Source: Candidatus Latescibacterota bacterium (GTDB taxonomy: Bacteria > Latescibacterota > UBA2968). From it: DNA of 64,000 nucleotides. Shown here one piece after another: positions 1 to 19,767 of this stretch. The stretch's first letter is position 1. Each line of letters starts with the position of its first letter. The stretch covers positions 3,296,001 through 3,360,000 of the forward strand of contig OZ242320.1 in assembly GCA_965208125.1 (NCBI GenBank), in the 5' to 3' direction. Under the pieces are notes generated by a model that saw only the letters and a list, made by a program, of their open reading frames with translations, ran no database searches and was not told the DNA's origin. The translations under genes and the position numbers were made by a program.

Positions 1-1639
1 GACGACACTTGTATCTGTCGGAGGGGATAGGATGATTAGATTGTGGGAAGTTTCGACGCGAACAAGTACTGTAATCCTAAGGCATAAGGATACCGTCACT
101 TCTATTGCATTTTCACCTGATGGAACAACCCTCGCTTTGGCATCTTATGATGAGGTCAGACTATGGGACATTGTGACGAGGCAAAATGTTGTCACCCTCT
201 CAGAGCATATGGATGAAGTTACAGATGTTGCATTTTCGCCCGATGGGACAATACTCGCTTCGACGTCTTATGGTGAGGTCAAACTATGGGATATTGCGAC
301 ACAAAATACATCTATCCTTACGGAACATCTATCTGGGGTCCGTTCTGTGGTATTTTCACCCGATGGAACGACACTTGTCCTCTTGTCAAGGAATCGCCTG
401 GTTAGAATGTGGAATGTTGCAATGAGAATAAATCTCGTTGCACCTTTTGAACATATCCATGGTATCTCCTCTGTCGCGTTCTCGCCAAACGGGACAATAC
501 TTGCTACTGGGTCATGGCAGGAGGTCAAGCTGTGGGACATTGAGATAAAAGAAAATATCGGCACACTCAAAGGGCATACGGATTGGGTCAATTCTATGGC
601 ATTTTCGCCTGATGGGACAATACTCGCTTCTGGGTCGGGAAGAAACGTCATGCTGTGGAATGTTGCGACTGGAACCAATATCGCCACCTTCTCAGAACAT
701 ACGAGTAGGGTCACTGCTGTTGTATTTTCGCCCGATGGCACGGTGCTTGCCTCGGGGTCTCATGATAAAACGATCAGATTGTGGAATGTTGAAACAGAAA
801 AAAATATTGCGACCCTTCCATACGATGAAAGGGTCCGGTCTGTGTCATTTTCGCCCGATGGGACAATACTCGCTTCTGGGTCGGGAAGAAACGTCATGCT
901 GTGGGATGTTTTGACAAGAGAAAATATCGCTATCCTTGAGGGCCATACGAATAATATCGCTTCTGTATCATTTTCGCCCGATGGCACGGTGCTTGCCTCA
1001 GGGTCAGGGGATAGAACAGTCAAACTGTGGGATGTAGCAGCAGGACGATCTATAGCTACATTTGAGGGGCATAAGGATTGGGTCTGGTCTGTCGCATTCT
1101 TACCTTACGGCACTACGCTCGCTTCGGGATCAGATGATGGCACGGCTCTGCTGTGGGATATATCGGAGTACATCACACCTGTGGTCAACATTCCCGATGC
1201 TAACCTCAGAGCGGTGATCAGGGATGCGTTGGGCAAGTCGCGTTTTGCACCTATTACCACTACTGATATGGCGAGTTTGACTACTCTGAACGCGAGTAAT
1301 CGCAATATCCGCGATTTGACCGGGCTGGAGTTTGCAACCAATCTGACCGAGTTGAATCTTGTGGGTAATCGGCTGAGTTCGCTGTCCATCAACACGCATA
1401 TTCCAGTGCTTCAGAACAGAGGTGTTGGGGTCTTGTTTGACAAGACGCCAACACCCGATTTTGATGGTGACGGTACTGTTGGTTTTGCTGACTTTTTGCT
1501 TTTTGTCGCGCAGTTCGGGTTCGGTGAAGACGATGAGGGATACGACGTGTGGTTTGATCTGGATGGGGATGGCATGATTGGATTCGGAGATTTTCTGATT
1601 TTTGCCAATAACTTTGGCAAATCTGCATCATCCAATTGA
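1..1639 (+). CDS. WD40-repeat protein with mini-LRR and C-terminal EF-hand/dockerin-like domain (5'-truncated by window edge; array member 1)
   Basis: Frame is open from position 2 (TTLVSVGGDR precedes the annotated Met). Contains GH...SVAFSPDG..LASGS.D..LWD repeats, an IPDANLRAVIRDALG LRR cap and a PDFDGDG..F.DFLLF / DLDGDG.IGFGDFLIF tail. Confidence 0.9.
   Translation, partial: TTLVSVGGDRMIRLWEVSTRTSTVILRHKDTVTSIAFSPDGTTLALASYDEVRLWDIVTRQNVVTLSEHMDEVTDVAFSPDGTILASTSYGEVKLWDIATQNTSILTEHLSGVRSVVFSPDGTTLVLLSRNRLVRMWNVAMRINLVAPFEHIHGISSVAFSPNGTILATGSWQEVKLWDIEIKENIGTLKGHTDWVNSMAFSPDGTILASGSGRNVMLWNVATGTNIATFSEHTSRVTAVVFSPDGTVLASGSHDKTIRLWNVETEKNIATLPYDERVRSVSFSPDGTILASGSGRNVMLWDVLTRENIAILEGHTNNIASVSFSPDGTVLASGSGDRTVKLWDVAAGRSIATFEGHKDWVWSVAFLPYGTTLASGSDDGTALLWDISEYITPVVNIPDANLRAVIRDALGKSRFAPITTTDMASLTTLNASNRNIRDLTGLEFATNLTELNLVGNRLSSLSINTHIPVLQNRGVGVLFDKTPTPDFDGDGTVGFADFLLFVAQFGFGEDDEGYDVWFDLDGDGMIGFGDFLIFANNFGKSASSN
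1109..1639 (+). repeat. Conserved 3' block (about 530 bp), copy 1 of 4; other copies at about 4507-5037, 9146-9676 and 13785-14315
   Basis: Near-identical DNA encoding the last blade, LRR and EF-hand tail in all four array genes. Confidence 0.9.
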
Positions 1640-1666
1640 CGGTATAAAAAAAATCAGGAGAATCTC

Positions 1667-2620
1667 ATGTATATACACACGAAGTATGGCTCGCGCAGAA
1701 CAAAATATCATTCAAGCAAATTAGGCATTAGTCCACCTCAGCACAATGTCATTAAAACCATTGCCATCTTTGTCACAGCAACCCTTCTACTCAACGCGAT
1801 AGCTCCCACATTTGCGTATGCAACTACGCAGAGTCAAGACGTGGAACAGGCCACACAGAAACCCCAGGAAAAGACAGTTACAGTCCTGTCTCGCGGAGAG
1901 ATTGATTCTTCAAAGATCACAATGGGATGGCATGCCCACATCGTCTATATATCCAAAGAGGAAGCTACAAGAACCGCAACCGGACAGATTATGGAAAAAG
2001 GCACAGATTATATCTTGATTAGAGTTGAGGATGAGGCATTGAAATCTTGGAAAACAATAGCATACCGTGACATGGATACCCTCATTATCGCTCAACACAC
2101 ACGAGATATTGAAGCATGGAGAAATGCAAGACAGACTCAACAACACCCAGGACAAGCCATACATCCACTCCTTAAAGGAGATTCCAAAGTACGTGTTTAT
2201 GCGCCTGTAATTCGGAAAGGAAGGATGGTCGGCAAGCTAATTAAAATGACGCAAGACACACTCGTTGTCCGTGGAGAACTTACATTTTATGGACGTAGAT
2301 TTTATCAGGTGCCCCTTTCTTCAATCTCCAATCTTGAAGTCAGCATTGGACAGCATAGAAATACATTCAAAGGCCTGGGCATTGGACTGGGTATCAGCGG
2401 ACTTTTAATAGCCGTCGCTGGAATGTCCGGCGGTGGCGATTTAGGTATGGGTCTGTTGGTGTCATTGCATGCCGCAATACCTATTACTATCGTTGCAACT
2501 ACAATTGGCCTACTAATGAAATCCGACAAATGGGTCGCGGTGCCGCTGCAACGTCTCAACTTGAGCCTTACACCCACATCTACAAAAGGGCTTCGCGCCG
2601 TGCTGACGTTTAATTTTTAA
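1667..2620 (+). CDS. Hypothetical secreted/membrane protein with signal peptide, Gly-rich hydrophobic hairpin and C-terminal beta-strand ending in Phe
   Basis: AGGAG RBS upstream. Signal-like IAIFVTATLLLNAIAPTFAYA; hydrophobic GLGIGLGISGLLIAVAG...IVATTIGLLM; ends LRAVLTFNF. Confidence 0.8.
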   Translation: MYIHTKYGSRRTKYHSSKLGISPPQHNVIKTIAIFVTATLLLNAIAPTFAYATTQSQDVEQATQKPQEKTVTVLSRGEIDSSKITMGWHAHIVYISKEEATRTATGQIMEKGTDYILIRVEDEALKSWKTIAYRDMDTLIIAQHTRDIEAWRNARQTQQHPGQAIHPLLKGDSKVRVYAPVIRKGRMVGKLIKMTQDTLVVRGELTFYGRRFYQVPLSSISNLEVSIGQHRNTFKGLGIGLGISGLLIAVAGMSGGGDLGMGLLVSLHAAIPITIVATTIGLLMKSDKWVAVPLQRLNLSLTPTSTKGLRAVLTFNF

Positions 2621-2655
2621 CGTCAGCAATCCGTGTCCGCAGAAGGGATAAATCC

Positions 2656-5037
2656 ATGCACTCAGAGCGCAACGTGAATCACGCGCAGCACAACGTCATT
2701 AAAGCCATCGCTATCCTGGTCACTACAGCCCTCTTGCTCAATGCGATGGCTCCCACACTTGACCTGAGCGCGCGCGATAGTTTATATGCTGCGCCAAAAC
2801 AAACGTTTAATTTAAACGCAGGCGAACCCCGTACGGTGCGGATGATCTACTTCTTGCCGAATGACCGTCCCTTTCGCCAGGAAGTGGTGGATTCGATGAA
2901 GGTGACCATTCGCCAGATTCAGACCTTCTTTGCAGAGCAGATGCAGGCGCACGGGTATGGCCGCAAGACCTTTCGCTTTGAGACCGATGCTCAGGGCGAA
3001 CCTATGGTTCATCGCGTGGAGGGTCAACATCCTACTGACCACTATCTTGGCGGTAGTGGTGAGGTTGATGAAATTGAACAGAAGTTTGATCTTTCGGCGA
3101 ACAATGTTTACTTCATCGTTCTGGACAATGGTACGGATGAAATTAAGCTGGGGATAAAAGGTTTAGGCATAGGGGGAAGAAATAGTGGCATTGCGAAGAT
3201 TCCCGGCGAATTTCACTGGAAAACGGCCGCACATGAACTTGGACATGGCTTTGGGTTGGGACACAATTTTAACGATGATGCGTACATCATGTCGTTTGGC
3301 TATACAGGCCAAGATCGGTTATCTCCCTGCTATGCCAAATTTTTGGCTGTGCATCCCTACTTCAATTCCGATGTTCCAGATGAAAATACATCGCCGCTGA
3401 CAATTCAACTTACTTCTCGGCGTGCATATCCAAAAGACTCAAAGAGCATCTCTATCCAACTCAAAGTCAGCGATTCAGATGGGCTTCATCAGGTACTTTT
3501 GTTCACTGGTGGTGTTTTCAATTTAAAGGCATGTCATGGATTGAATGGCGAACAAGATGCTGTTGTTGAATTTGATTATGACGGCCGTATTCCATCTAAT
3601 GATGAAACGAGTCTTTCCAATCCTCTTGTGCATCAAATTTATGTCAAGGCGGTTGATACTGGCGGGAACGTTGCCAGCCTGTCTTTTAACTTGTGGGAAG
3701 TTTCGCCACAACATATCGCTACTATTGAGGGACATACGGATCAGATCCGTTCTGTGGCATTTTCCCCTGATGGTACTCTACTCGCTTCAGGGTCTTGGGA
3801 TGGCAAGATCAAGTTGTGGGATGTTGCGACGCAAGCAAATACCGCTACCCTTGAAGGGCATACAAGTTGGGTCAATTCTGTGGCATTTTCACCCGATGGA
3901 ACGACTCTTGCCTCTGGGTCATGGGATACCACGGTCAGACTATGGGATGTTGCGACAGAAAAGAATATCACCACCCTTGAAGGACATACGAAGTGGGTCA
4001 ATTCTGTGGTGTTTTCGCTTGATGGTACTCTACTCGCTTCGGGGGCAGGGAATACGATTAAACTATGGGATGTTGCGACGTGGACAAATACCGTTACCCT
4101 TGTTCATACAGATTTTGTTTACTCTGTGATGTTTTCTCCCGATGGAAAGACACTCGCCTCTGGGTCATGGGATGGCACGGTTAGGCTATGGGATGTTGGT
4201 AAAAAAGAAAATAGTATCACTCTTGAGGGACATACATCTGCTGTCTTTGATGTAGCGTTTTCTCCCGATGGCACAATACTCGCTTCAGGTTGGGGCGAGA
4301 TTAAACTGTGGGATGTTATGACGCGAGCAAATATCTTCACTATTAAAAACTATGGATCTGTGAGTTCTATGGTATTTTCACCTGATGGGATGATACTCGC
4401 TACGGGGTTAGAGGGTGGCGAGATTAAACTGTTGGACGTTGCGACTGGTGAAAATATTGAGGCATTAAGAGGTCCAAGGGTTCAGTCTGTGGCGTTTTCG
4501 CCTTACAGTACAACACTTGCTTCCGGTTCAGAGGATGGTGCAGTTCTGCTATGGGATGTGTCGGAGTACATCACGCCTGTAGTCCGTATTCCTGATGCTA
4601 ACCTCAGAGCAGTTATTCGAGATGCGCTGGGCAAATCGCGTTTTGCGCCTATTACTACCACTGATATGGCGAATTTGACTACTCTCGACGCGAGCAACCG
4701 CAATATCCGCGATCTGACCGGGCTTGAGTTTGCAACCAATCTGACAGAGTTGAATCTTGTGGATAATCGGCTGAGTTCGTTGTCTATCAACACGCATATT
4801 CCAGCACTTCAGGACAGAGGTGTTGAGGTCTTGTTTGACAAGACGCCAACACCCGATTTTGATGGCGATGGTGTTGTTGACTTTTCTGATTTTTTGCTTT
4901 TTGTAGCACAGTTTGGGTTTAGTGAAGACGATGAGGGTTATGACGTGTGGTTTGATCTGGATGGCGATGGTGTGATCGGATTCGGAGATTTTCTGATTTT
5001 TGCCAATGCCTTTGGCAAAGTCATATCGTCAAATTGA
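2656..5037 (+). CDS. Metzincin-like Zn protease - 7x WD40 - mini-LRR - EF-hand/dockerin-like protein (short chimeric array member 2)
   Basis: HELGHGFGLGH at about 3232 plus Met-turn-like YIMS; 7 WD40 blades; same LRR and EF-hand tail as neighbours. Confidence 0.9.
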   Translation: MHSERNVNHAQHNVIKAIAILVTTALLLNAMAPTLDLSARDSLYAAPKQTFNLNAGEPRTVRMIYFLPNDRPFRQEVVDSMKVTIRQIQTFFAEQMQAHGYGRKTFRFETDAQGEPMVHRVEGQHPTDHYLGGSGEVDEIEQKFDLSANNVYFIVLDNGTDEIKLGIKGLGIGGRNSGIAKIPGEFHWKTAAHELGHGFGLGHNFNDDAYIMSFGYTGQDRLSPCYAKFLAVHPYFNSDVPDENTSPLTIQLTSRRAYPKDSKSISIQLKVSDSDGLHQVLLFTGGVFNLKACHGLNGEQDAVVEFDYDGRIPSNDETSLSNPLVHQIYVKAVDTGGNVASLSFNLWEVSPQHIATIEGHTDQIRSVAFSPDGTLLASGSWDGKIKLWDVATQANTATLEGHTSWVNSVAFSPDGTTLASGSWDTTVRLWDVATEKNITTLEGHTKWVNSVVFSLDGTLLASGAGNTIKLWDVATWTNTVTLVHTDFVYSVMFSPDGKTLASGSWDGTVRLWDVGKKENSITLEGHTSAVFDVAFSPDGTILASGWGEIKLWDVMTRANIFTIKNYGSVSSMVFSPDGMILATGLEGGEIKLLDVATGENIEALRGPRVQSVAFSPYSTTLASGSEDGAVLLWDVSEYITPVVRIPDANLRAVIRDALGKSRFAPITTTDMANLTTLDASNRNIRDLTGLEFATNLTELNLVDNRLSSLSINTHIPALQDRGVEVLFDKTPTPDFDGDGVVDFSDFLLFVAQFGFSEDDEGYDVWFDLDGDGVIGFGDFLIFANAFGKVISSN

Positions 5038-5510
5038 TGGTTTGTCTGTTTTGGAACGACACTTCAAGTAAGGTGCATATCCAATGAAAAATTGGGTTCT
5101 TCATTTTACCTCTTTGATCAAGCTGGCAACATGCTTTTTGGTATTGCTCTGTCTATCGTCTGCTGGATATGCTTCTCAGCCATCGGATGATGTGCATTTT
5201 TGCTTGCCACTTGATTTCGAAGACATGCAGGCGCGCGATAGTTTGTATGCTGCCACGAAGCACGCGCTTAATCTGAACGTGGGCGACCCCCGCACGGTGC
5301 GGATGATCTACTTCTTGCCGAATGACCGTCCATTTCGCCAAGAAGTGGTTGATTCGATGAAAGTGACCATTCGCCAGATTCAGACCTTTTATGCCGAGCA
5401 GATGCAGGCGCATGGACACGGAAACAAAACCTTCCGCTTTGAGATCGATGCCCAGGGCGAGCCGATGGTTCATCGCATGGATGGTCAACACCCCGATAGT
5501 CACTATCTCA
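5038..5510 (+). repeat. Conserved intergenic plus 5' block; near-identical copy at about 9677-10150, partial copy at about 2769-3040
   Basis: ggtttgtctgttttggaac.acacttcaagtaaggtgcatatccaatgaaaaattgggttcttcattttac recurs with a 4639 bp period. Confidence 0.9.
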
Positions 5511-8500
5511 ACAATACGACAAATACTGTGTTTGGCGAGATTGAACAGGCGTTTGATGTGATGGAGAATATTTACTTCATCGTGGTTGACAATAGTATAA
5601 GTGGAATTGTTCAGGATGGTCAGCATGTGTCAGGTGTAGGAGCCCGACGAGGTAAAAATGGTGGTGATACATTATTTCCCAGTGAATTTAGTTTTAAAAC
5701 AGCGGCACATGAACTCGGACATGCTTTCGGATTGCAGCACGATTTCAACGATGATGCGTATATGATGTCCTATGGAACAAGTAGCGATCAATTATCAGTA
5801 TGTAATGCTGAATATTTGGCTGTTCATCCCTACTTCAATCTCGATACCCCGGTTGAAGCGACGCAGTTGCCAACTATCGAACTTCTTTCGTCACGGGATT
5901 ATCCGGCTGGGGCAAAGAGTATCTCTATTCAACTCAAAGTCAGCGATTCAGGAGGGCTTCATCAAGTAATCTTATTCGTTAGAACAAGAGCACCACACAT
6001 CGCCGCTGGATTTCTTGAAGCGAAGACCTGTCGTGGATTGACGGGGCAACAAGACGCTGTTATTGAATTTGATTATAATGGTGTTATTCCATCTCTTGGC
6101 TATACGAGTCTTTCCGATCCTGTGGCTCATCCAATTTATATCGAGGTAGTTGATACCGATGGGAATGTGAGCGGATTACCTTTTGACCTTTTGGAAATTT
6201 CGCCAAACCATATCGCTTCCTTTGAAGGACATACGGATAGGGTCTATTCTGTGGCGTTTTCACCCGATGGTACAATGCTCGCTTCGGGGTCAAGGGATAA
6301 CACTATCAGATTATGGGATGTTGCGACTAAGGCGGATAGCGCTACCCTTGAAGGGCACACGAACTATGTTTATTCAGTGGCATTTTCACCCGATGGGAAA
6401 ATACTCGCTTCCGGGTCAAGATCAAGGAATAATTCGATCAAACTGTGGGATGTTGAAACCAGGCAACATATCGCTGACCTTGATGGACATGATTGGGGAG
6501 TCCGTTCTGTGATGTTTTCACCCGATGGTACGATACTTGCTTCTGGGGCAGGGGATAACACGGCTAAGCTGTGGGATGTTGTCACAAGAGAAAATATCGC
6601 TACCTTTGAGGGGCATACGCATCGTGTAAATTCTGTGGCGTTTTCACCTGACGGCACAACGCTCGCTTCGGGGTCTTATGATAATACGGTCAAGCTATGG
6701 GATGTTGCGAAGAAGACAAATATTACCACTCTTGAAGGGCATACATATACTGTAAATTCTGTATCGTTTTCGCCTGATGGTACGATGCTGGCTTCCGGGT
6801 CAGGAGATGACACAGTCAAGCTGTGGGATGTTGCTACCGGACGACATATCGCCACCCTTGAAGGACATATCAGTGATGTTGCTTCTGTGTCATTTTCGCC
6901 CGATGGAAAGATTCTCGCCTCGGGAGCAGCGAATGGCACAATCAAGCTGTGGGATGTTGTTACCGGACGACATATTGCTGACTTTCCGCGCGATGGTTGG
7001 ATTGATTCTATATCCTTTTCACACAACGGTACCATGCTCGCTTTTAGTTCAGAGGATAGCAGGGTCGAACTGTGGGATACATCTGAATGGACGCAATCTC
7101 GTCCTCAAACACTTATGAAGATCTCGGGGGATAACCAGCAAAGTACAACAGGTACAGAGTTGGCGAACCCGTTTATCGTTGAGGTACGGGATCAGTATGG
7201 TAATCCTTTACAAGGTGCTCTGGTCACCTTTGCTGTCACCGCTGGTGATGGGAAACTCAGTGGGAGATTTACTGTAGAGAATGCTATAACTGATGACAAC
7301 GGCAGAGTAGAAAGGACGCTTACTCTTGGTCAGGGAACAAATACTGTCGAGGTATCTATCGCTGGGATTGAAGTGATTTTTAACGCTGAGAGCGTTGGAA
7401 TACCTGCCACACCGATCATAGGTGGTGACTATCCGACATGGCATTTACCCGATGGCGCAATGATACGCTTGGGAAAAGGACACATGGGAAAAGGCGATAG
7501 GGCGGTGGCATTTGCGCCGGATGGCCGAAGCCTTGCTGTGGCAAGTGGCATCGGTGTGTGGCTTTACGATGTGGGGATTGCCCGTGAACGTGCACTACTC
7601 GTCGGGTATAAGGATGAAGTTACTTCTGTTGCATTTTCTTCGAATGGAATGACACTCGCTTCGGGATCAAGGGATGGGGAGGTCAAGCTATGGGATGCAG
7701 CTATAGGAGAAAATATCGCCATCCTTGAAGGGCATGGAAGTGGGGTCACTTCTGTTGCATTTTCATCTGATGGTACAACGCTCGCCTCGGGATCTTATGA
7801 TCGAACGATCAAACTGTGGAATGTCGCGGACAAAGAAAATATTGCGACCCTTGAGGGGCATACAAATTTTGTCACTTCTGTTGCATTTTCCCCCGATGGA
7901 AAAATCCTCGCTTCGGGTTCATGGGACGAAACAGTTAGGCTATGGGACATTGCTATAAAAGAAAATATCGCGATCCTTGGGGGATATAACTACACTATCT
8001 ATTCTGTTGCGTTTTCACCCGATGGCACGATGCTCGCGTCAGGCTCACGGGATGGCACAGTCAAGCTGTGGGACATTGCGACAAAACAAAATATCGCGAC
8101 CTATAGGCATGGCCTGAATCAATGGATCTCTTCTATAGTGTTCTCTCCCGATGGAGCTACCTTTGCCGTGGGATTGAATAATAATACGATTAAGCTATGG
8201 GAAGTGACAACAGGGACAAATATCGCCACTCTTGAGGGTCATACGGGTTGGGTCTATTCCGTTGCATTTTCACCCTTTGGGACAACCCTTGCTTCTGGAT
8301 CAGATGATGGTACAATCAGGCTGTGGGACATGGCGACACAAAATGTTTCTACTCTTACGGGGCATCTATCCGTGGCCCGTTCTATAGCATTGTCACCAAA
8401 TGGCGCGATTCTCGCTTCAGGATCAGATGGCAAGGTCGCGTTGTGGGATGTGGCGACAGGACGCCTTGTTGCCACACTTGAGACGCGTGCGGGCTCAGCC

Positions 8501-9676
8501 CAGACAGTGGCGTTTTCACCCAATGGAAAAATGCTGGCTATGAATTCATGGGATGGTATCAAGCTGTGGGACATGGAGACGCGCCAAACAATTGTTACTC
8601 TTAAGCATCGAAGTTCAGGCCAGACAGTGATGTTTTCACCCAATGGAAAAATGCTTGCTTCCGGTACATATGGATATGGTAATATCAGATTATGGAACAC
8701 TGTGACAGGAGAGAATATCGCCGATCTTGAGGGTCATACCTCCGAGGTTCGTTCTGTGGCATTTTCGCCCGATGGGAAAATGCTCGCTTCCGGATCATTT
8801 GATAACACGATTAGGCTGTGGGATTTGGAGGCAGAACAAACTATTGCTATCCTTCCGCACAATATTTGGGTCAATTCTATATCGTTTTCGCCGGATGGTA
8901 CAACGCTTGCCGGATCAGATGATAAAACGATCAAACTGTGGGACGTTGCGACGAGGAAAACTATCGCTACATTCGGGGGATATACGAGTCCGGTTATTTC
9001 TGTATCGTTTTCGCCGGATGGCACAATACTTGCCGGATCAGATGATGATAAAACGATCAAACTGTGGGATGTTGCGACAGAACGATCTATCGCTACATTT
9101 GATGGGCATACAAGTACCGTCACTTCTATGGTATTTTCATCTTACGGCACAACCCTTGCTTCGGGGTCAGATGATGGCACGATTCTGCTGTGGGATATGT
9201 CGCAGTATATCACGCCTGTGGTCTATATTCCCGATGCCAACCTTCACGCAGTGATTCGAGATGCGCTGAGCAAGTCGCGTTTTGCGCCCATTACAGTGAC
9301 GGACATGGCGAGTTTGACTACTCTGGATGCGAGCAATCGCAATATCCGCGAGTTGGATGGGCTTGAGTTTGCAACCAATCTGACCGAGTTGAATCTTGTG
9401 GATAATCGGTTGAGTTCGCTGTCTATCAACACGCATATTCCAGCACTTCAGGACAGAGGCGTTGAGGTTCTGTTTGACAAGACGCCAACGCCCGATTTTG
9501 ATGGCGATGGTGTTGTTGGCTTTGCTGACTTTTTGCTTTTTGTAGCACAGTTTGGGTTTAGTGAAGACGATGAGGGTTATGACGTGTGGTTTGATCTGGA
9601 TGGGGATGGCACAATTGGATTCGGAGATTTTCTGATTTTTGCCAATGCCTTTGGCAAAGCCGTATCGTCAAATTGA
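5084..9676 (+). CDS. Secreted metzincin-like protease - WD40x7 - Big_1 Ig-like - WD40x14 - mini-LRR - EF-hand/dockerin-like protein (array member 3, 1530 aa)
   Basis: Signal peptide ...CFLVLLCLSSAGYA; HELGHAFGLQH at about 5708; ISGDNQ...VEVRDQYGNPLQGALVTF Big_1-like signature; 21 WD40 blades counted. Confidence 0.92.
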   Translation: MKNWVLHFTSLIKLATCFLVLLCLSSAGYASQPSDDVHFCLPLDFEDMQARDSLYAATKHALNLNVGDPRTVRMIYFLPNDRPFRQEVVDSMKVTIRQIQTFYAEQMQAHGHGNKTFRFEIDAQGEPMVHRMDGQHPDSHYLNNTTNTVFGEIEQAFDVMENIYFIVVDNSISGIVQDGQHVSGVGARRGKNGGDTLFPSEFSFKTAAHELGHAFGLQHDFNDDAYMMSYGTSSDQLSVCNAEYLAVHPYFNLDTPVEATQLPTIELLSSRDYPAGAKSISIQLKVSDSGGLHQVILFVRTRAPHIAAGFLEAKTCRGLTGQQDAVIEFDYNGVIPSLGYTSLSDPVAHPIYIEVVDTDGNVSGLPFDLLEISPNHIASFEGHTDRVYSVAFSPDGTMLASGSRDNTIRLWDVATKADSATLEGHTNYVYSVAFSPDGKILASGSRSRNNSIKLWDVETRQHIADLDGHDWGVRSVMFSPDGTILASGAGDNTAKLWDVVTRENIATFEGHTHRVNSVAFSPDGTTLASGSYDNTVKLWDVAKKTNITTLEGHTYTVNSVSFSPDGTMLASGSGDDTVKLWDVATGRHIATLEGHISDVASVSFSPDGKILASGAANGTIKLWDVVTGRHIADFPRDGWIDSISFSHNGTMLAFSSEDSRVELWDTSEWTQSRPQTLMKISGDNQQSTTGTELANPFIVEVRDQYGNPLQGALVTFAVTAGDGKLSGRFTVENAITDDNGRVERTLTLGQGTNTVEVSIAGIEVIFNAESVGIPATPIIGGDYPTWHLPDGAMIRLGKGHMGKGDRAVAFAPDGRSLAVASGIGVWLYDVGIARERALLVGYKDEVTSVAFSSNGMTLASGSRDGEVKLWDAAIGENIAILEGHGSGVTSVAFSSDGTTLASGSYDRTIKLWNVADKENIATLEGHTNFVTSVAFSPDGKILASGSWDETVRLWDIAIKENIAILGGYNYTIYSVAFSPDGTMLASGSRDGTVKLWDIATKQNIATYRHGLNQWISSIVFSPDGATFAVGLNNNTIKLWEVTTGTNIATLEGHTGWVYSVAFSPFGTTLASGSDDGTIRLWDMATQNVSTLTGHLSVARSIALSPNGAILASGSDGKVALWDVATGRLVATLETRAGSAQTVAFSPNGKMLAMNSWDGIKLWDMETRQTIVTLKHRSSGQTVMFSPNGKMLASGTYGYGNIRLWNTVTGENIADLEGHTSEVRSVAFSPDGKMLASGSFDNTIRLWDLEAEQTIAILPHNIWVNSISFSPDGTTLAGSDDKTIKLWDVATRKTIATFGGYTSPVISVSFSPDGTILAGSDDDKTIKLWDVATERSIATFDGHTSTVTSMVFSSYGTTLASGSDDGTILLWDMSQYITPVVYIPDANLHAVIRDALSKSRFAPITVTDMASLTTLDASNRNIRELDGLEFATNLTELNLVDNRLSSLSINTHIPALQDRGVEVLFDKTPTPDFDGDGVVGFADFLLFVAQFGFSEDDEGYDVWFDLDGDGTIGFGDFLIFANAFGKAVSSN

Positions 9677-9722
9677 CGGTTTGTCTGTTTTGGAACCACA
9701 CTTCAAGTAAGGTGCATATCCA

Positions 9723-12700
9723 ATGAAAAATTGGGTTCTTCATTTTACGCCTTTGATCAAGCTGGCAACATGCTTTTTGGTATTGCTCTGTCTATCGTCT
9801 GCTGGCTATGCTTCGCCGCCATCGACTGATGTGCATTTTTGTCTGCCACTTGATTTCGAAGACATGCAGGCGCGCGATAGTTTGTATGCCGCCACGAAGC
9901 ACGCGCTTAATCTGAACGTTGGCGAACCCCGCACGGTGCGGATGATCTACTTCTTGCCGAATGACCGTCCGTTTCGTCAAGAGGTGGTGGATTCGATGAA
10001 GGTGACCATTCGCCAGATTCAGACCTTCTATGCCGAGCAGACGCAGGCGCACGGGTATGGGAACAAGACCTTCCGCTTTGAGACCGATGCAGAGGGCGAA
10101 CCGATGGTTCATCGCGTGGATGGGCAACATCCCGATAGTCACTATCTTGACAATACATTTTTTACTGTGCTTGACGAGATTGAACAGGTGTTTGATCTCG
10201 ATGTGAACATTTATTTTGTTGTCATTGATAATAGCACGGATTTACTTGCTGGAGGTGCGTTAGGTAGGGGAGGACGGAGAGGGAAAACAGGTGGTATGGG
10301 ATTGTTTCCCGGTGGATTTAGCTGGACAACAGCTGCTCATGAATTGGGACATGCCTTTGGATTGGAGCACGATTTCCAGGATGATAGATATCTCATGTCG
10401 TATGGCCCCGGGCAAGATCGGTTATCTATGTGCCATGCCGAATTTTTGGTTGTACATCCTTACTTCAATTCCAATGTTGAAGTGCAAGAAACACCATCGC
10501 CGACAATCGAACTCATTTCGCCGCTTGGATATCCATCCGGCTCAAAGAGCATCGCTATCCAACTGAAAGTCAGCGATTCAGGGGGGATTCATCAAGTAAT
10601 TATATCCGCTAAAACAATACCACTACACCGTGCCGCCGGATTTCGTGAAGTGAAGGCGTGTCGTGGATTAAACGGCGAACAAGATGCTGTCGTTGAATTC
10701 GATTATGACGGCATTATCCCGTCTAATGGCTTTACAAATCTTTCCCGCCCTGCTGAGCATCCAATTTCTGTTAGGGTAATAGATATTGACGGAAATGTGA
10801 GCCGGATATCTTTTGACCTTTGGGAAATTTCGCCACACTATATCGCTACCCTTTTAGGACATACAGAGTATGTTGGATCGGTGGTCTTCTCGCCCGATGG
10901 GATGATCCTCGCTTCTGGGTCAGGAGATCACACGATCAGGCTATGGGATGTTTCAACGCGTACAGAGGTCGCCACACTTATAGGGCATACCGAGGGGGTC
11001 AGTTCTATAGCGTTTTCGCCCGATGGGACCATCTTGGCCTCGGGATCATGGGATCACACGATCAAGCTGTGGGATATGACGATCAGGCGTAATGTTGCCA
11101 CCTTGGAGGGGTATACAGGGGTTTCAGTTTCTTTTTCCTACGACGGGACGATGCTCGCTTCCGGGTCTTGGCAGAATATCCAGCTATGGGATGTTTCAAC
11201 GCGTACAGAGATCACGACCCTCAAAGGGCATACGGGCTGGGTCTTTTCTGTGGCTTTCTCGCCCGATGGAATGCTACTTGCCTCGGGTTCTGATGATGGC
11301 ACGATCAAGCTGTGGGATGTTTCAACGCGTACAGAGATCACGACCCTCAAAGGGCATACGGATAGGGTCTATTCAGTTGCATTTTCGCCCGATGGAATGC
11401 TACTTGCCTCGGGTTCTGATGATGGCACGATCAAGCTGTGGGATGTTTCAACGCGTACAGAGATCACGACCCTCAAAGGACATACGAATGGGATCTATTC
11501 AGTTGCGTTTTCGCCCGATGGGGCAACGCTCGCCTCAGGGTCAGTGCAGGATGCCACAAGACTTTGGGACATTGTGACAGGAAGACATCTCGCCACGCTT
11601 GACGGGCATAATGGTCAATGTAGATCTGTTGCGTTTTCACCCAATGGTATGATGCTCGCTGTGGGGACATGGAATTCTTTGGTGGGACGTCCAAGTGTGG
11701 TTGAACTGTGGAATGTGCATGAGTGGGTGAAGCCCCGTCCGCAAACACTTGTGAAAATCTCAGAGGATGACCAGCAAGGTACATTGAGCACTGCATTGGT
11801 GAATCCCTTTGTCGTTGAAGTGAGGGATCAGAACAATAATCCCTTACAAGGTGCTGAGGTCACGTTTACTGTCATCGCAGGTGATGGTAAACTCAGTGGG
11901 CGGTTCACTGTTGAGAATGCAATTACTGATGCCAACGGTAGGGCGCAGAGTACACTCACGCTTGGTCCTCATCCGGGAACAAATACGGTTGAAGCAACGC
12001 TTGCCGAGTTGGGACCTGTGACCTTTAATGCCGTGGCCGTTGGAACGCCTACCACGCCGGTCATGGGTAGTGATTATCAGACATGGCATTTGCCCGATGG
12101 TGCTGTGGTTCGTTTGGGAAAAGGGCGCGTGGGTGGAGGCGACAGAGCAGTCGCGTTTTCACCCGATAGCCAACACCTTGCTGTGGCAAGTGGCATTGGT
12201 ATCTGGCTTCACGATGTGGCGACATCTCGGGAACGCGCACTACTCACCGGGCATACTGATGAGGTCTATTCAGTTGCATTTTCGCCCGATGGTACAACAC
12301 TCGCTTCTGGGTCTTTTGATAGAACAGTCAAGCTATGGAATGTTGCGACGGGAGAAAATATCGCTACCCTTGAGGGACATGCGAACAGGATCTATTCTGT
12401 GGCTTTCTCGCCCGATGGGAAAATGCTCGCCTCGGGTTCTGATGATCGCACGATCAAGCTGTGGGAAGTATCAACAGGAGCGATTATCGCCACCCTTGAC
12501 GGGCATACTGATGAGGTCTATTCAGTTGCATTTTCGCCCGATGGTACAACACTCGCTTCTGGATCTTGGGATAATACAGTCAAGCTGTGGGATGTTGCGT
12601 CAAGACAAAGTATCGCCACCCTTACACATACGCATTGGGTCTATTCAGTTGCGTATTCACCCGATGGTACGATACTCGCTTCCGGGTCTTTTGATCGCAC

Positions 12701-14315
12701 GATCAAGCTGTGGGAAGTATCAACAGGAGCGATTATCGCCACCCTTGAAGGCCATAGGTCTGAGGTCTATTCAGTTGCATTTTCACCTGATGGTACAAGG
12801 CTTGCTTCTGGATCTTGGGATAATACAGTCAAGCTGTGGGAAGTATCAATAGGAGCGATTATCACCACTCTTGACGGTCATACAAGTGAGGTCTATTCAG
12901 TTGCATTTTCCCCAGATGAGAAAATACTCGCTTCAGGATCAGGAGATGGCACAATTAAGCTGTGGGATATTGAGACACATAATATCTTGGCTTTTAATGG
13001 TCATACGGATGGTGTCATTTCCATGGCATTTTCATCTGATGGGGTGCTACTCGCTTCTAGGGCAAGGGATAACAAGGTCAGGTTATGGGATATGGCGACA
13101 AAACAAAATATTGCTGTCCTCAACAAAATAGTTTCTGAGAACATTGCGTTTTCACCCGATGGTAAGACGCTTGCTTCCGGGTTATGGAATACCATCAGAC
13201 TATGGGATATGGCGACAAGACAAAGTATCGTCACATTGGAAGGACATATGGATGTGATCACCTCTGTTGCGTATTCGCCCGATGGTACGATCCTTGCTTC
13301 CGGGGCAGGAGATAGCACAATTAGGCTATGGGATGTGGCTACAGGAGAAAGTATCGCCACTCTTGACGGGCATACGAGAGAGATCACTTCTATTGCGTTT
13401 TCACCCGATGGTACGATCCTTGCTTCCGGGGCAGGAGATAGCACAATTAGGCTATGGGATGTGGCTACAGGAGAAAGTATCGCCACTCTTGACGGGCATA
13501 CGAGAGAGATCACTTCTATTGCGTTTTCACCCGATGGTACGATCCTCGCTTCCGGTGCAGGGGATAGTATCATTAGACTATGGGATGTGGCAACGCAAAC
13601 AGAGATCACCACCCTTGAGGGGCATACACATTGGATCTATTCAGTGGCGTATTCGCCCGATGGCACAACGCTCGCTTCGGCAGGATGGGATGAGGTGCGG
13701 CTATGGAATATTGCGACGCGAACAAATATCGCCATTCTTGAGGGACATCGGGATAGGGTCTCTTCTGTGGCGTTCTTGCCTTACAGCATAACGCTCGCTT
13801 CCGGGTCAGATGATGGCACGATTCTGCTGTGGGATATGTCGCAGTATATCACGCCTGTGGTCTATATTCCCGATGCCAACCTTCACGCAGTGATTCGAGA
13901 TGCGCTGAGCAAGTCGCGTTTTGCGCCCATTACAGTGACGGACATGGCGAGTTTGACTACTCTGGATGCGAGCAGCCGCAATATCCGCGATCTGACCGGG
14001 CTTGAGTTTGCAACCAATCTGACCGAGTTAAATCTTGTGGATAATCGGCTGAGTTCGCTGTCTATCAACACGCATATTCCAGCGCTTCAGGACAGAGGCG
14101 TTGAGGTCTTGTTTGACAAGACGCCAACGCCCGATTTTGATGGCGATGGTGTTGTTGGCTTTGCTGACTTTTTGCTTTTTGTAGCACAGTTTGGGTTTAG
14201 TGAAGACGATGAGGGTTATGACGTGTGGTTTGATCTGGATGGGGATGGCACAATTGGATTCGGAGATTTTCTGATTTTTGCCAATGCCTTTGGCAAGGTC
14301 ATATCGTCAAATTGA
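9723..14315 (+). CDS. Secreted metzincin-like protease - WD40x7 - Big_1 - WD40x14 - mini-LRR - EF-hand/dockerin-like protein (array member 4, 1530 aa)
   Basis: Same architecture and length as 5084..9676; HELGHAFGLEH at about 10338; 21 WD40 blades counted. Confidence 0.92.
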   Translation: MKNWVLHFTPLIKLATCFLVLLCLSSAGYASPPSTDVHFCLPLDFEDMQARDSLYAATKHALNLNVGEPRTVRMIYFLPNDRPFRQEVVDSMKVTIRQIQTFYAEQTQAHGYGNKTFRFETDAEGEPMVHRVDGQHPDSHYLDNTFFTVLDEIEQVFDLDVNIYFVVIDNSTDLLAGGALGRGGRRGKTGGMGLFPGGFSWTTAAHELGHAFGLEHDFQDDRYLMSYGPGQDRLSMCHAEFLVVHPYFNSNVEVQETPSPTIELISPLGYPSGSKSIAIQLKVSDSGGIHQVIISAKTIPLHRAAGFREVKACRGLNGEQDAVVEFDYDGIIPSNGFTNLSRPAEHPISVRVIDIDGNVSRISFDLWEISPHYIATLLGHTEYVGSVVFSPDGMILASGSGDHTIRLWDVSTRTEVATLIGHTEGVSSIAFSPDGTILASGSWDHTIKLWDMTIRRNVATLEGYTGVSVSFSYDGTMLASGSWQNIQLWDVSTRTEITTLKGHTGWVFSVAFSPDGMLLASGSDDGTIKLWDVSTRTEITTLKGHTDRVYSVAFSPDGMLLASGSDDGTIKLWDVSTRTEITTLKGHTNGIYSVAFSPDGATLASGSVQDATRLWDIVTGRHLATLDGHNGQCRSVAFSPNGMMLAVGTWNSLVGRPSVVELWNVHEWVKPRPQTLVKISEDDQQGTLSTALVNPFVVEVRDQNNNPLQGAEVTFTVIAGDGKLSGRFTVENAITDANGRAQSTLTLGPHPGTNTVEATLAELGPVTFNAVAVGTPTTPVMGSDYQTWHLPDGAVVRLGKGRVGGGDRAVAFSPDSQHLAVASGIGIWLHDVATSRERALLTGHTDEVYSVAFSPDGTTLASGSFDRTVKLWNVATGENIATLEGHANRIYSVAFSPDGKMLASGSDDRTIKLWEVSTGAIIATLDGHTDEVYSVAFSPDGTTLASGSWDNTVKLWDVASRQSIATLTHTHWVYSVAYSPDGTILASGSFDRTIKLWEVSTGAIIATLEGHRSEVYSVAFSPDGTRLASGSWDNTVKLWEVSIGAIITTLDGHTSEVYSVAFSPDEKILASGSGDGTIKLWDIETHNILAFNGHTDGVISMAFSSDGVLLASRARDNKVRLWDMATKQNIAVLNKIVSENIAFSPDGKTLASGLWNTIRLWDMATRQSIVTLEGHMDVITSVAYSPDGTILASGAGDSTIRLWDVATGESIATLDGHTREITSIAFSPDGTILASGAGDSTIRLWDVATGESIATLDGHTREITSIAFSPDGTILASGAGDSIIRLWDVATQTEITTLEGHTHWIYSVAYSPDGTTLASAGWDEVRLWNIATRTNIAILEGHRDRVSSVAFLPYSITLASGSDDGTILLWDMSQYITPVVYIPDANLHAVIRDALSKSRFAPITVTDMASLTTLDASSRNIRDLTGLEFATNLTELNLVDNRLSSLSINTHIPALQDRGVEVLFDKTPTPDFDGDGVVGFADFLLFVAQFGFSEDDEGYDVWFDLDGDGTIGFGDFLIFANAFGKVISSN
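11184..11486 (+). repeat. 126-bp (42-aa) near-exact tandem WD40 blade repeat, about 2.4 units
   Basis: tgggatgtttcaacgcgtacagagatcacgaccctcaaagg at 11187, 11313 and 11439. Confidence 0.95.
13278..13546 (+). repeat. 126-bp exact tandem WD40 blade duplication (about 2.1 units)
   Basis: cccgatggtacgatcct starts at 13278, 13404 and 13530; the two full units read as identical. Confidence 0.95.
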
Positions 14316-14389
14316 TGGTATCGAAAGCATCGTTCCGCACTTTAATTATCACGTAGTGCGATATTCAAGGTTATACCCCCAAAAGAGAT

Positions 14390-15163
14390 TTATTTTTTAG
14401 TTTCTGAATCCAACACGCGGAATCCATATCGCTGAAAGACCGCAGCCGCTGTGTCTGATTGAAAAAAGTGCATGGCGGCTTTGACTGTCGGGGTGCGTCG
14501 TCCTTTTACGATGGCGATTGGATAGACAATGGGTGTGTGCAATAGGGAGTCGGGGAGTGTGGCAATTACTTCGACGCCATCGCTGATTATCGCGTCTGTG
14601 GCATAGACAATGCCGGCTGCACATTCTCCGCGAGCGACGAGCGCGAGTGCGCCGCGTACGTCCATTGCCGGGGCGATGCGGTTTTTGAGTAGTGCCCACC
14701 AGCCCAATTTTTTCAGGGCTTCTACAGTGTAGATACCAGCAGGCACATGAGATGGGTCGCCCAGGGCCAATTGTCCTTCGAATGCGTTGGGAAAGTCAAA
14801 GCCTGCGTGGGGTTCGATATCGAATTTTTCATCCTCTGGCGCGATGATTACCAGGGTGTTGCCCAGCAGGTTGATTCGGGTATCGGGTTCGATCAAATTT
14901 TCTCTCGCTAAAAAATCCATCCATTTTATATTTGCCGATAGATATATGTCCGCAGGCGCGCCCTGGGCTATTTGTTTGGCGAGGATTGAAGAACCGGCAA
15001 AAGACAGTCGCAGGGATATGTCCTGTTTTTCCGCGATTTTGGAGAGGTCTTGCAGGGCACTCGTCAAGCTGGCAGCAGCATATACGGTGACTGGTTCGGC
15101 AAGGACGATTCCGCGCGTTGAGAGGCAGATTGCGATGTAGATGTAGATAAACCATTGTTTCAT
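14390..15163 (-). CDS. modA: Molybdate ABC transporter substrate-binding protein
   Basis: Signal peptide; VYAAASLT, FAGSSILAKQIAQGAPADIYLSAN, GDPSHVPAGIY and IVYATDA motifs. Confidence 0.92.
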   Translation of the reverse strand: MKQWFIYIYIAICLSTRGIVLAEPVTVYAAASLTSALQDLSKIAEKQDISLRLSFAGSSILAKQIAQGAPADIYLSANIKWMDFLARENLIEPDTRINLLGNTLVIIAPEDEKFDIEPHAGFDFPNAFEGQLALGDPSHVPAGIYTVEALKKLGWWALLKNRIAPAMDVRGALALVARGECAAGIVYATDAIISDGVEVIATLPDSLLHTPIVYPIAIVKGRRTPTVKAAMHFFQSDTAAAVFQRYGFRVLDSETKK

Positions 15164-15201
15164 ATGATATTCCGGTTGGAGATTGGGGGTTGAGTGAGTG
15201 G

Positions 15202-15232
15202 GCTGACCGCTGACTGCTGACCGCTGATAGCT
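15202..15232 (+). repeat. Heptamer tandem repeat (GCTGACY-like) x4.4
   Basis: gctgacc gctgact gctgacc gctgata gct, just upstream of an AAGGAG RBS. Confidence 0.85.
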
Positions 15233-15254
15233 ACCCGCTTACAAGGAGAATAGA

Positions 15255-15902
15255 ATGTCCGATTTTTGGGTTCAAGATGGCGAGACGATGTTGTTTATTG
15301 GCGATAGTATTACGGATTGTGGCCGGCGGGCGGCTGAGGCACCGCTGGGCAATGGGTATGTGCGGGCGTTTACAGAGATTGTGACGGCGCAGTTTCCCGA
15401 GCGAAAGATCAATTATATCAATAGGGGAATAGGCGGCAATCGGGTGACGCATTTGCACGAGCGCTGGCGAGAAGATGTGATTGATCACGCGCCGGATAAG
15501 TTGTCGATAAAGATCGGGATCAATGATTTACACAGCTATTTGCGACAGGCGGAGGATGCGGTTCCGCCCGCGCGATTTGAAGAATTGTACGATGCGATTC
15601 TGGATACGACGCAACGGGAACTCGGATGTCCTATTGTGCTGATTACGCCGTTTTATATTTCGACGGATACTTCCGGGCAGACGTTCCAGAGCGAGGTTAT
15701 GGCGTTGATTCCGGAGTATATCGGCATTGTGGAGAAGATGAGCGAGAAGTACGGGACAAAGCTGTTGCGTTTGCACGATCTTTTTCAGGCGCATTTGAAA
15801 TATAGAGGTTCAGAAACTTTTTGTCCAGAGCCTGTGCATCCCAATCGGACAGGGCACTTTATTATTGCGGATGCGTTGTTTAAGATGCTGTGTGAGGCGT
15901 GA
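15255..15902 (+). CDS. SGNH/GDSL family hydrolase
   Basis: FIGDSIT block I, NRGIGG, GIND and PVHP motifs. Confidence 0.9.
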   Translation: MSDFWVQDGETMLFIGDSITDCGRRAAEAPLGNGYVRAFTEIVTAQFPERKINYINRGIGGNRVTHLHERWREDVIDHAPDKLSIKIGINDLHSYLRQAEDAVPPARFEELYDAILDTTQRELGCPIVLITPFYISTDTSGQTFQSEVMALIPEYIGIVEKMSEKYGTKLLRLHDLFQAHLKYRGSETFCPEPVHPNRTGHFIIADALFKMLCEA

Positions 15903-15956
15903 GAGGCGAGACAGAGGGGCATACCATATCAGCTTTCTTCAATTGGAGGCACATCA

Positions 15957-17042: not shown

Positions 17043-17044
17043 AG

Positions 17045-19677: not shown

Positions 19678-19722
19678 GGTGAGAGATCTTTCTGTGTGTG
19701 GTTTGAGCTGTCTTGCAATGTT

Positions 19723-19748
19723 GTAGGGGCAGGCCCCTGTGCCTGCCC
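19723..19748 (+). repeat. GTAG-type REP-like palindrome
   Basis: GTAG-GGGCAGGC-ccctgt-GCCTGCCC in an intergenic gap. Confidence 0.7.
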
Positions 19749-19767
19749 GTTGGTCTATTCGTCCAGT

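Follow-up and report, generated by a model that had tools for sequence, protein, structure and literature searches.

A mosaic tandem array of genes for predicted exported metallopeptidases with WD40 propellers in a variable Latescibacterota locus

Results

We analysed a tandem array of four paralogous genes (m1 to m4), predicted to encode metzincin-type zinc metallopeptidases with WD40 repeats, at the start of a 64,000-nucleotide stretch (the window; contig OZ242320.1, positions 3,296,001 to 3,360,000) of a Candidatus Latescibacterota genome (GCA_965208125.1; G000), a single-contig 5.75-Mb assembly that is 96% complete. The array has a mosaic ancestry: two conserved blocks have been homogenised, gene number has changed, propellers have been swapped and sequence has moved between species. 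All four paralogues lie on one strand (+) and end at 1639, 5037, 9676 and 14315. Of the first, m1, the 3′ third (1..1639) falls inside the window; the whole 1520-aa gene begins 2923 nt before position 1 and comprises a signal peptide, a pro-segment, metzincin and immunoglobulin-like (Ig) domains, propeller A, a Big_1 domain, propellers B and C, leucine-rich repeats (LRR) and a dockerin-like tail. m2 (2656..5037) encodes a shorter protein of 793 aa with metzincin and Ig domains, a single WD40 propeller, LRR and the dockerin-like tail, without Big_1, while m3 (5084..9676) and m4 (9723..14315) both encode 1530 aa with the full architecture and recur with a period of 4639 bp. An earlier note on this DNA, made from the sequence, had described four such genes head to tail; the array, the shared strand, the equal lengths of m3 and m4 and their period are real, but the order is not strictly head-to-tail, as an unrelated 317-aa gene (1667..2620, +) lies between m1 and m2.

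In m3, the leader (5084..5224) opens with a hydrophobic signal peptide of the Sec type, about aa 1-30, and continues as a pro-segment with a conserved cysteine (Cys40, codon 5201-5203). Next comes the N-block (aa 48-130; 5225..5473), a conserved part of the catalytic domain; it is 76-92% identical in nucleotides across the genus members compared, and we take it to be a 5′ crossover hub. The rest of the metzincin domain and an Ig-like beta-sandwich (5474..6199; zinc motif 5708-5740, Met-turn at aa 228) lead into WD40 propeller A (6200..7099), a Big_1 bacterial Ig-like domain (7100..7453; PF02369, E 2e-9), propellers B and C (7454..9199; about 14 blades, judging from the repeat count) and an LRR cap with a dockerin/EF-hand-like tail (9200..9676), the 3′ crossover hub. 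Pfam delimits 17 WD40 stretches in m3 and 20 in m4, which probably form three propellers. Both the N-block and the LRR/dockerin tail are under strong purifying selection.

We then compared the ends of the genes with their cores. The intergenic plus 5′ block was identical between m3 and m4 at 437 of 473 nt (44 of 46 in the intergenic region alone), and the 3′ block at 508 of 527 nt, with exact runs of 172 and 187 nt; a junction unit made of the m2 tail, the 46-bp intergenic region and the m3 leader and N-block (4511..5510, +) recurs 4639 nt further on at the m3/m4 junction. Aligned cores were about 59-78% identical, in line with the strong core divergence noted before. The claim that the 3′ block is near-identical in all four genes did not hold, the other five pairs sharing 455-475 of 527 nt (86-90%). 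As for its mosaicism, all eight motif sharings cited earlier were exact, and the split of m1 and m2 from m3 and m4 is strong (16 of 19 informative LRR sites), whereas the RDLTGL and KVISSN patches amount to two or three sites each. Among 73 tandem paralogue pairs of the genome (a set with a few antisense shadow open reading frames (ORFs) and several pairs per array), m3/m4 alone had both ends at least 90% identical and a core at most 80% identical; five pairs had one such end.

Synonymous divergence (dS) between m3 and m4 was 0.17 in the leader, 0.35 in the N-block, 0.76-1.30 in six core segments, 0.12 (0.118) in the LRR and 0.026 in the tail, and the interspecies background from flanking genes was 0.14-0.37. 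The m3 tail is nearer to that of m4 than to that of its core orthologue G005a, in a congeneric genome (dS 0.28), so slow evolution is not the explanation. We therefore rejected purifying selection alone, since synonymous sites are homogenised too, and a recent whole-gene duplication, which is incompatible with the dS of the cores.

The nearest relative of m3 changes along the gene (lettered labels denote genes of congeneric genomes). At the ends it is m4 (leader 94%, LRR 96%, tail 98%; the leader is about 70% or less identical to the other homologues compared), in the metzincin domain G005a (97%), in propeller A G014c (90%), and in Big_1 (88%) and propeller C (95%) G014a. G014c has WD40 repeats at its start and no zinc motif, and m3 propeller A is 89-90% identical in nucleotides to the first propeller of the metzincin-less WD40 gene in G014 and G006. 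In a quartet of m3, m4, G005a and m1 (informative sites given as m3+m4 : m3+G005a : third split), the leader (33:1:3) and LRR (14:1:1) favoured m3+m4, whereas the metzincin domain (2:33:2) and the propellers (9:76:11, 19:73:9 and 12:84:13) favoured m3+G005a. Approximately unbiased (AU) tests gave p <= 0.004 against the alternatives in the leader, LRR, metzincin domain and three propellers, favoured no topology in the N-block, Ig and dockerin tail, and were borderline in Big_1. With G014 genes included, propeller A joined m3 to G014c (89 vs 11 sites) and propeller C joined it to G014a (88 vs 3). The proposal that modules are swapped through homologous flanks is thus upheld, as the AU tests reject a single history and the segment trees conflict. 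A chimera of another kind is seen in m2, whose first 35 codons (2656..2761, +; 80-88% identical to the leaders of a neighbouring small-protein family) come from that family, the metzincin signal peptide and pro-segment cysteine being thereby replaced.

Between G014b/c and G006a/c, dS drops to 0-0.06 along extended shared stretches, the background being 0.21-0.24, which indicates recent transfer between species. Two segments, the N-block (p 0.006) and the tail (p 0.005), were nearer to m4 in genes of the same locus than in genes of other loci; six other segments were not, in a test whose related genes are not independent. The m2/m3 and m3/m4 junctions share their intergenic sequence (44/46) and a leader type that just 2 of 114 homologues have; one pair was testable. 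A pair of neighbouring genes (1614 and 1016 aa; L023 and L029) hardly differs for several kb between G014 and G006, while the genes flanking the pair differ at dS 0.21-0.24, as expected of a recent horizontal transfer.

Close alleles of the array genes, which are cluster mates from other assemblies, showed the reverse of the within-genome pattern: their cores were about 97-99% identical and their ends differed. With segment limits fixed earlier, differences in ends and cores were 15/127 vs 2/414 for P0154, 4/57 vs 1/382 for P0155 and 14/136 vs 8/290 for P0152, so that in three of four close alleles the ends differ significantly more than the cores. The ends are therefore crossover hubs and not the constants that they had been taken for. 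The P0154 leader carries a motif seen in a G006 gene. P0154 itself is 96% identical to m4 aa 1-544, and its source labels it Poribacteria, which would mean either a mis-binned contig or cross-phylum transfer. P0158, an allele of m2, passes directly from blade 1 to blade 5, after which the frame is lost.

DNA of the window is contained in sponge metagenome runs, and no RNA data set was among the matches listed. Near-identical pieces of m4 were found in three other samples, and pieces at about 98-99% identity in the sponge metagenome runs X6 and X8. In these short-read comparisons we disregarded contig joints with sides of 20-25 nt, and runs X5, X6 and X8 had less contig depth on m2/m3 than on m4, which we did not take as evidence of absence. 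No conspecific contig spanning the array was found among the short-read run contigs or Joint Genome Institute (JGI) metagenomes, where an exact search with the m3/m4 leader gave 0 matches; a JGI protein scan returned 80 loci at 37-65% identity that were essentially generic WD40 and were not used. A protein search with m4 aa 125-800 gave no close full-length allele among the best 120 matches (top 64%; ranking driven by repeat number).

To the right, the array adjoins a gene for a modA-like solute-binding protein (14390..15163, -; Pfam SBP_bac_11; modA is our label), the right anchor of a variable locus in the genus. We took the modA neighbourhood for 21 genus genomes, 15 of which had both anchors (a response regulator and modA) within the sequence retrieved. 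The interval between them was 3.0-34.4 kb long and held 1-4 metzincin genes in 7 of the 15 genomes and none in 8; the locus is thus not invariant, and copy number varies from 0 to 4 among species. Small ...LTFNF proteins in varying number are encoded there as well, together with outer-membrane-like genes (with just a sub-threshold PorV match), orphan tails such as a 169-aa ORF in G006 and, in many cases, a Schlafen/AlbA_2 gene. In our genome, the array (G000:C1:3293077-3310315) has a G+C content of 48.0% vs 53.5% and 51.6% in the 20-kb flanks.

The N-terminal metzincin module was matched in 34 of 41 relatives, up to 20 times each, and in 64 of 151 genomes across the phylum, and it matched 1052 clusters of 50% identity (E <= 1e-30). 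Among 72 loci, the closest named records of the array family were Latescibacterota, and the labels Poribacteria, Rhodothermales and Gemmatimonadota occurred as well; the handful of names that the sources gave were 'hypothetical' or 'Ig-like domain-containing'. The array genome has six matches, namely the four array genes, a fifth, split copy and a distant one. Rather than a system standing alone, the array is one hot spot of a widespread family.

We next considered the catalytic unit. The metzincin domain has Pfam Metallopep and Reprolysin-like matches, and the signature read earlier is confirmed: the zinc motif HExxHxxGxxH is present in 4/4 array genes as HELGHxFGLxH (HELGHGFGLGH at 3232..3264, +, in m2; 10338-10370 in m4), with a Met-turn after the third His in 4/4 and in 112 of 114 homologues. 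Invariance of the motif itself in the homologue alignment is circular, as the rows were chosen by it. An AlphaFold model of aa 29-374, built with 104 homologues, had a predicted local distance difference test score of 91, the first 33 residues being uncertain. Its best structure matches were Amuc_1438 (Z 23.5, root-mean-square deviation 3.7, 281 residues aligned) and OgpA (Z 22.7, deviation 4.1, 282 aligned) of Akkermansia muciniphila (PMC7518263, PMC9513282; PDB 6Z2O, 8DF2); both cover the two domains, and the next row stood at Z 10.4. ADAM17, ulilysin and others matched at Z 8-10, pointing to the metzincin alpha/beta fold. Foldseek agreed, with the OgpA/Amuc_1438 fold at ranks 1-9, and a sequence profile matched the N-terminal half of both proteins (E 1.4e-13 and 6.1e-10). 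The modelled metzincin and beta-sandwich thus superpose on those of OgpA and Amuc_1438 over about 280 residues and share the zinc triad, Glu and Met-turn. The catalytic domain and beta-sandwich, as modelled, belong to the broad OgpA/Amuc_1438 peptidase family (Medley 2022), whose two enzymes the authors regard as founders of a large and diverse family (PMC9513282), and we read the array proteins as predicted zinc metallopeptidases of this fold. The likeness extends to an appended binding module, which is CBM51 in Amuc_1438. The array proteins differ in being 16-18% identical to the two enzymes, in bearing WD40 propellers, Big_1, LRR and a dockerin-like tail in place of a carbohydrate-binding module (CBM), and in having a Cys-bearing pro-segment and many copies per genome.

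OgpA is described as binding glycan via Y116, F166, W199 and Y236 (PMC7518263), and Amuc_1438 as retaining two of these aromatics, Y171 and Y217, equivalent to F166 and W199 (PMC9513282). In our alignment, the four loops equivalent to the OgpA glycan pocket had an entropy of 2.5-2.8 bits vs 1.1 elsewhere in the domain, and the position adjoining W199 (five residues before the zinc-motif His) was W or F in 82 of 104 rows; by sequence mapping, this residue might stand in for the sugar-site aromatic of OgpA. The pro-segment cysteine was present in 90 of 103 aligned homologues, and a co-fold of pro-segment, catalytic domain and Zn scored 0.03; the idea that the pro-segment may serve as a Cys switch draws on this conservation and on analogy.

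WD40 variability peaked at presumed top-face positions. Over nine gene pairs and blade positions up to the Trp column, the four most variable positions reached 3.5-3.9 bits, and we take them to be the WD40 top-face positions. Blade pairs at least 85% identical numbered two in m1, four in m4 and none in m2 and m3, and none was found between the four genes; the homogenised pairs of m1 and m4 reach 96-97%. In m4 propeller A, where three blades were homogenised recently, a contig of run X6 skips two of them (11187..11438, +; 252 nt), and the skip, which falls on a 41-nt exact repeat, may be a real deletion or a repeat or graph collapse. Binding to substrates or surfaces is the probable role of these appended propellers.

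Sec export of the array proteins is suggested by a hydrophobic leader that no further membrane-like segment follows, and the LRR and dockerin-like tail would anchor them. The LRR and EF-hand/dockerin-like profile matches are weak. Genome-wide, the dockerin/EF-hand-like module occurs on 79 ORFs, mostly at 41-76% identity outside the array, next to 5 cohesin-like, 1 PorU-like and 8 PorV-like matches. The module sits at either end of proteins (e.g. window 21840-23048), and some of the cohesin-like matches lie in large proteins with tails of the type IX secretion system (T9SS) (2.267-2.278 Mb); the dockerin-like and cohesin-like proteins possibly constitute a surface scaffold system. Judged by motif, homologues from Poribacteria and part of those from Latescibacterota have a T9SS-type tail at their end instead.

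Discussion

On balance, we favour the reading, held with moderate confidence, that this Latescibacterota genus is sponge-associated and has a hypervariable locus for envelope proteins, of which the array is the part able to expand, with recombined exported peptidases acting on glycoproteins as the product. A full gene would encode a Sec-exported zinc metallopeptidase of the OgpA/Amuc_1438 fold with up to three WD40 propellers and an LRR/dockerin-like tail. The conserved N-block and tail would offer a substrate for ordinary homologous recombination: because they stay similar enough, unequal crossovers, conversions and DNA from congeners could add, delete or re-wrap whole cores, the tail-intergenic-leader junction being carried as one unit and single propellers or blades sometimes swapped. 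RecA-type unequal crossover and conversion are the presumed events. The outcome would be a changing set of exported peptidases that differ in cleft loops and propeller faces, directed at sponge matrix or food glycoproteins, with nutrition and niche keeping as the benefit. Sponge glycoproteins would be the likeliest targets, substrates probably being chosen by the loops and propellers.

The recombination mechanism is of a known, ordinary kind, and its closest counterpart is the lpl cluster of Staphylococcus aureus. There, as the published account describes it, recombination at a conserved 132-nt intragenic block (mean 88%) shuffles variable parts, the 3′ end-intergenic-5′ end moves as a unit, 5′ and 3′ trees are incongruent and copy number varies (PMC2568036). 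Here too, tandem paralogues for exported proteins have conserved intragenic blocks (N-block aa 48-130; LRR/tail), incongruent segment phylogenies (quartets, AU tests and segment trees) and a junction kept as a unit, as judged from one testable pair. The array differs in that two hubs flank a 3.7-kb multi-domain enzyme core, internal propellers are swapped as well and exchange takes place between species; the proteins are unrelated. The fungal HNWD genes (het-d/het-e), to which the array had been likened, proved a weak analogy. That class, as described, calls for NACHT, for repeats that are homogeneous across genes and for codons under positive selection (PMC1805685); the array shares WD40 blades that are locally homogenised, losable and most variable at top-face positions, but few blades are homogenised, within m1 and m4 only, no blade is at least 85% identical between the four genes and top-face pN/pS is not above 1. 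The m3 segments outside the WD40 repeats matched only peptidase, Ig, LRR and EF-hand, with no HET or NACHT, and the proteins read as exported, not cytoplasmic. In sum, the earlier interpretation holds for flank recombination, module swaps and locus variability, and fails for constant ends, the HNWD analogy and competitor or phage targets.

Several observations weigh against the favoured reading. Single copies are dispensable, as 8 of 15 genomes lack the genes at the locus and 2 of 20 congeners have no match to the N-terminal module at all. The fifth metzincin-WD40 copy (G000:C1:5210057-5214444, at 5.21 Mb) is dispersed and split into three ORFs, and its tail is just 74% identical to that of m3, placing it outside the homogenised pool. 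The close alleles may or may not be conspecific, and in the fourth of them, P0157, ends and cores (14/158 vs 2/64) did not differ significantly (p 0.16). dN/dS per segment was 0.05-0.71, vs about 0.1 for most flanking genes, and pooled pN/pS at the four most variable blade positions was 0.76-0.96 over the nine gene pairs by a counting method; with no segment above 1, any adaptive diversification is putative, and the top-face pattern is one of relaxed or mixed selection. Surface loops commonly vary in any enzyme family. By sequence mapping, the OgpA glycan positions are seldom aromatic here (Y116 1/96, F166 8/94, W199 5/104, Y236 1/103) and fall in hypervariable loops. The zinc helix is also short, at 11 residues in the model (176-186), and the profile lacks a 17-residue OgpA stretch; in the O-glycopeptidase subfamilies of OgpA and Amuc_1438, a long (about 30 Å) zinc-bearing helix is described as shaping glycan selection. 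Dependence on O-glycans may therefore be absent, and the array proteins are homologues within the fold family that lack features of the O-glycopeptidase subfamily. Finally, the four array proteins have no T9SS-type tail and so could stay in the periplasm.

Some of these points would equally suit an account in which the genes and the recombination are the same, but the diversity is a by-product of relaxed selection among redundant genes (birth-and-death) or variation by which exposed surfaces escape recognition by phage or host, the paralogues sharing one generic proteolytic or adhesive job. We regard this as possible, if rather unlikely. It gains from dN/dS below 1 in all segments and near-neutral values at top-face positions, from the frequency of broken or truncated copies and orphan tails, from milder end-homogenisation in other tandem arrays of the genome and from a second gene family of the locus that varies in number likewise. 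It fits poorly with intact zinc motifs and Met-turns in all four genes, with cores that are about 97-99% identical between close alleles and move between species, and with variation focused in cleft loops and at blade top-face positions.

The earlier note had instead proposed exported weapons against changing competitor or phage proteins, in which the WD40 part picks the victim and the metzincin destroys it. Modular swaps and variable binding faces are real, and a dense sponge microbiome would make conflict plausible; even so, we think this improbable. Polymorphic toxins (contact-dependent inhibition (CDI), Maf, Rhs) also form tandem cassettes with orphan fragments and exchange through homologous flanks, with a constant carrier and a swapped C-terminal toxin and immunity gene. 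Here, by contrast, the enzyme makes up the conserved N-terminus instead of a C-terminal tip that is swapped, the C-termini are conserved and the 46-bp gaps between m2, m3 and m4 hold no small immunity-like gene. No delivery device was seen in the locus, the closest solved relatives are mucin O-glycopeptidases, and nothing supports competitor or phage targets, the catalytic fold pointing to glycoprotein substrates.

A programmed switch that makes variants within a clone, whether a diversity-generating retroelement, a shufflon or conversion between an expression site and silent cassettes, is very improbable. Long exact junction repeats (172 and 187 nt), the orphan tail gene of G006 and m4 without two blades in one sample could be taken to suggest one. 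No dedicated diversifying machinery was found, however: the genome has no RVT_1 match, in contrast to diversity-generating retroelements, and no inverted repeats of at least 25 nt, as might be expected of a shufflon, lie in window 1-20000, in a search that left aside shorter sites and recombinase families. Three of the four genes have their full length and a leader of their own, and core dS near saturation indicates old divergence. That the similar ends are an artefact, through collapse or mis-joining of paralogues, is scarcely credible: none of the short-read contigs listed bridges m2/m3 or m3/m4, so gene order rests on the single-contig assembly, but the ends are just 86-96% alike and mosaic, public contigs of 0.8-2.3 kb from run X1 show 0 differences over the unique m1-m4 cores, and arrays of this kind recur at this locus in independent genomes.

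Returning to the peptidases of the hypervariable locus, a bolder proposal, which we consider doubtful, is that they are the mucinase equivalents of sponge symbionts. In this proposal, OgpA-fold glycoproteases (more than 1000 clusters in Latescibacterota, Poribacteria and others) would have loops that set glycan or peptide preference, a WD40 part replacing the CBM to pick the host protein and Cys-switch latency, and cassette exchange between co-resident species would retarget them to different sponge hosts. If so, a large class of 'eukaryote-like' WD40 proteins would gain a biochemical job. Sponge symbionts are typified by WD40-rich 'eukaryote-like proteins', and a major class of them is fused to a metallopeptidase of the predicted OgpA fold. 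Sponge-symbiont WD40, LRR and Ig proteins with signal peptides are described as abundant (Poribacteria, PMC3909097; Latescibacterota, PMC12993501), the Poribacteria WD40 proteins with a Por/T9SS-type tail (PMC3909097). In the main texts of both papers 'peptidase' has 0 matches and WD40 is not linked to a protease domain; no mention of array shuffling was found. No paper joining sponge symbionts, WD40 and metzincin or OgpA was found in a search that covered few subscription journals and no supplements, and members of this family may be among the homologues in table S1 of PMC9513282. We take the family to be large, functionally testable and apparently undescribed. What is new here is a catalytic unit modelled with the OgpA/Amuc_1438 fold (Z about 23), in which the glycan aromatics fall in the family's most variable loops. 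With this 38-kDa unit and standard glycopeptide assays, function is directly testable, which may yield new enzymes for glycoproteomics. The locus also clearly exemplifies how modules are exchanged in and among uncultured species, stable cores going with rewritten ends.

Other features of the locus and genome

The 317-aa gene at 1667..2620 belongs to the second variable family of the locus (also L145:9699-12863), with a shared TxLLLNAxAPT-type leader, a ...LTFNF end and a weak SH3-like match; it matched no Pfam family, and its look-alikes in the ESM Atlas were hypothetical proteins only. Strict ...TFNF genes number 0-6 per genome and alternate with outer-membrane-like genes of about 300 aa, and the family seems to follow the constant-end, variable-middle pattern too. 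Scans for promoters and terminators gave about as many matches as expected by chance (30 vs 28.6; 19 vs 15.1). A gene with Schlafen AlbA_2, HATPase_c_4 and Fic-like_C domains (L112:17018-18472) has equivalents in G004, G006, G011, G013, G014 and G020, recurs inside the variable locus in 7 of the genomes read and stands alone in two of the emptiest versions of the locus. In a more distant congener (G016), five tandem paralogues of about 524 aa adjoin modA (L128:2334-10853), with an MRFFNT... start and identical C-terminal 14 residues. Elsewhere in the array genome, a four-gene tandem array for exported proteins of about 600 aa (G000:C1:1361635-1370059) shows the pattern in milder form, its ends being 84-97% and its cores 79-85% identical, and six tandem paralogues, presumably kinase-like (G000:C1:3684836-3699970), have conserved N-termini (ALPQG.RLQEYELVRV) and unrelated C-termini.

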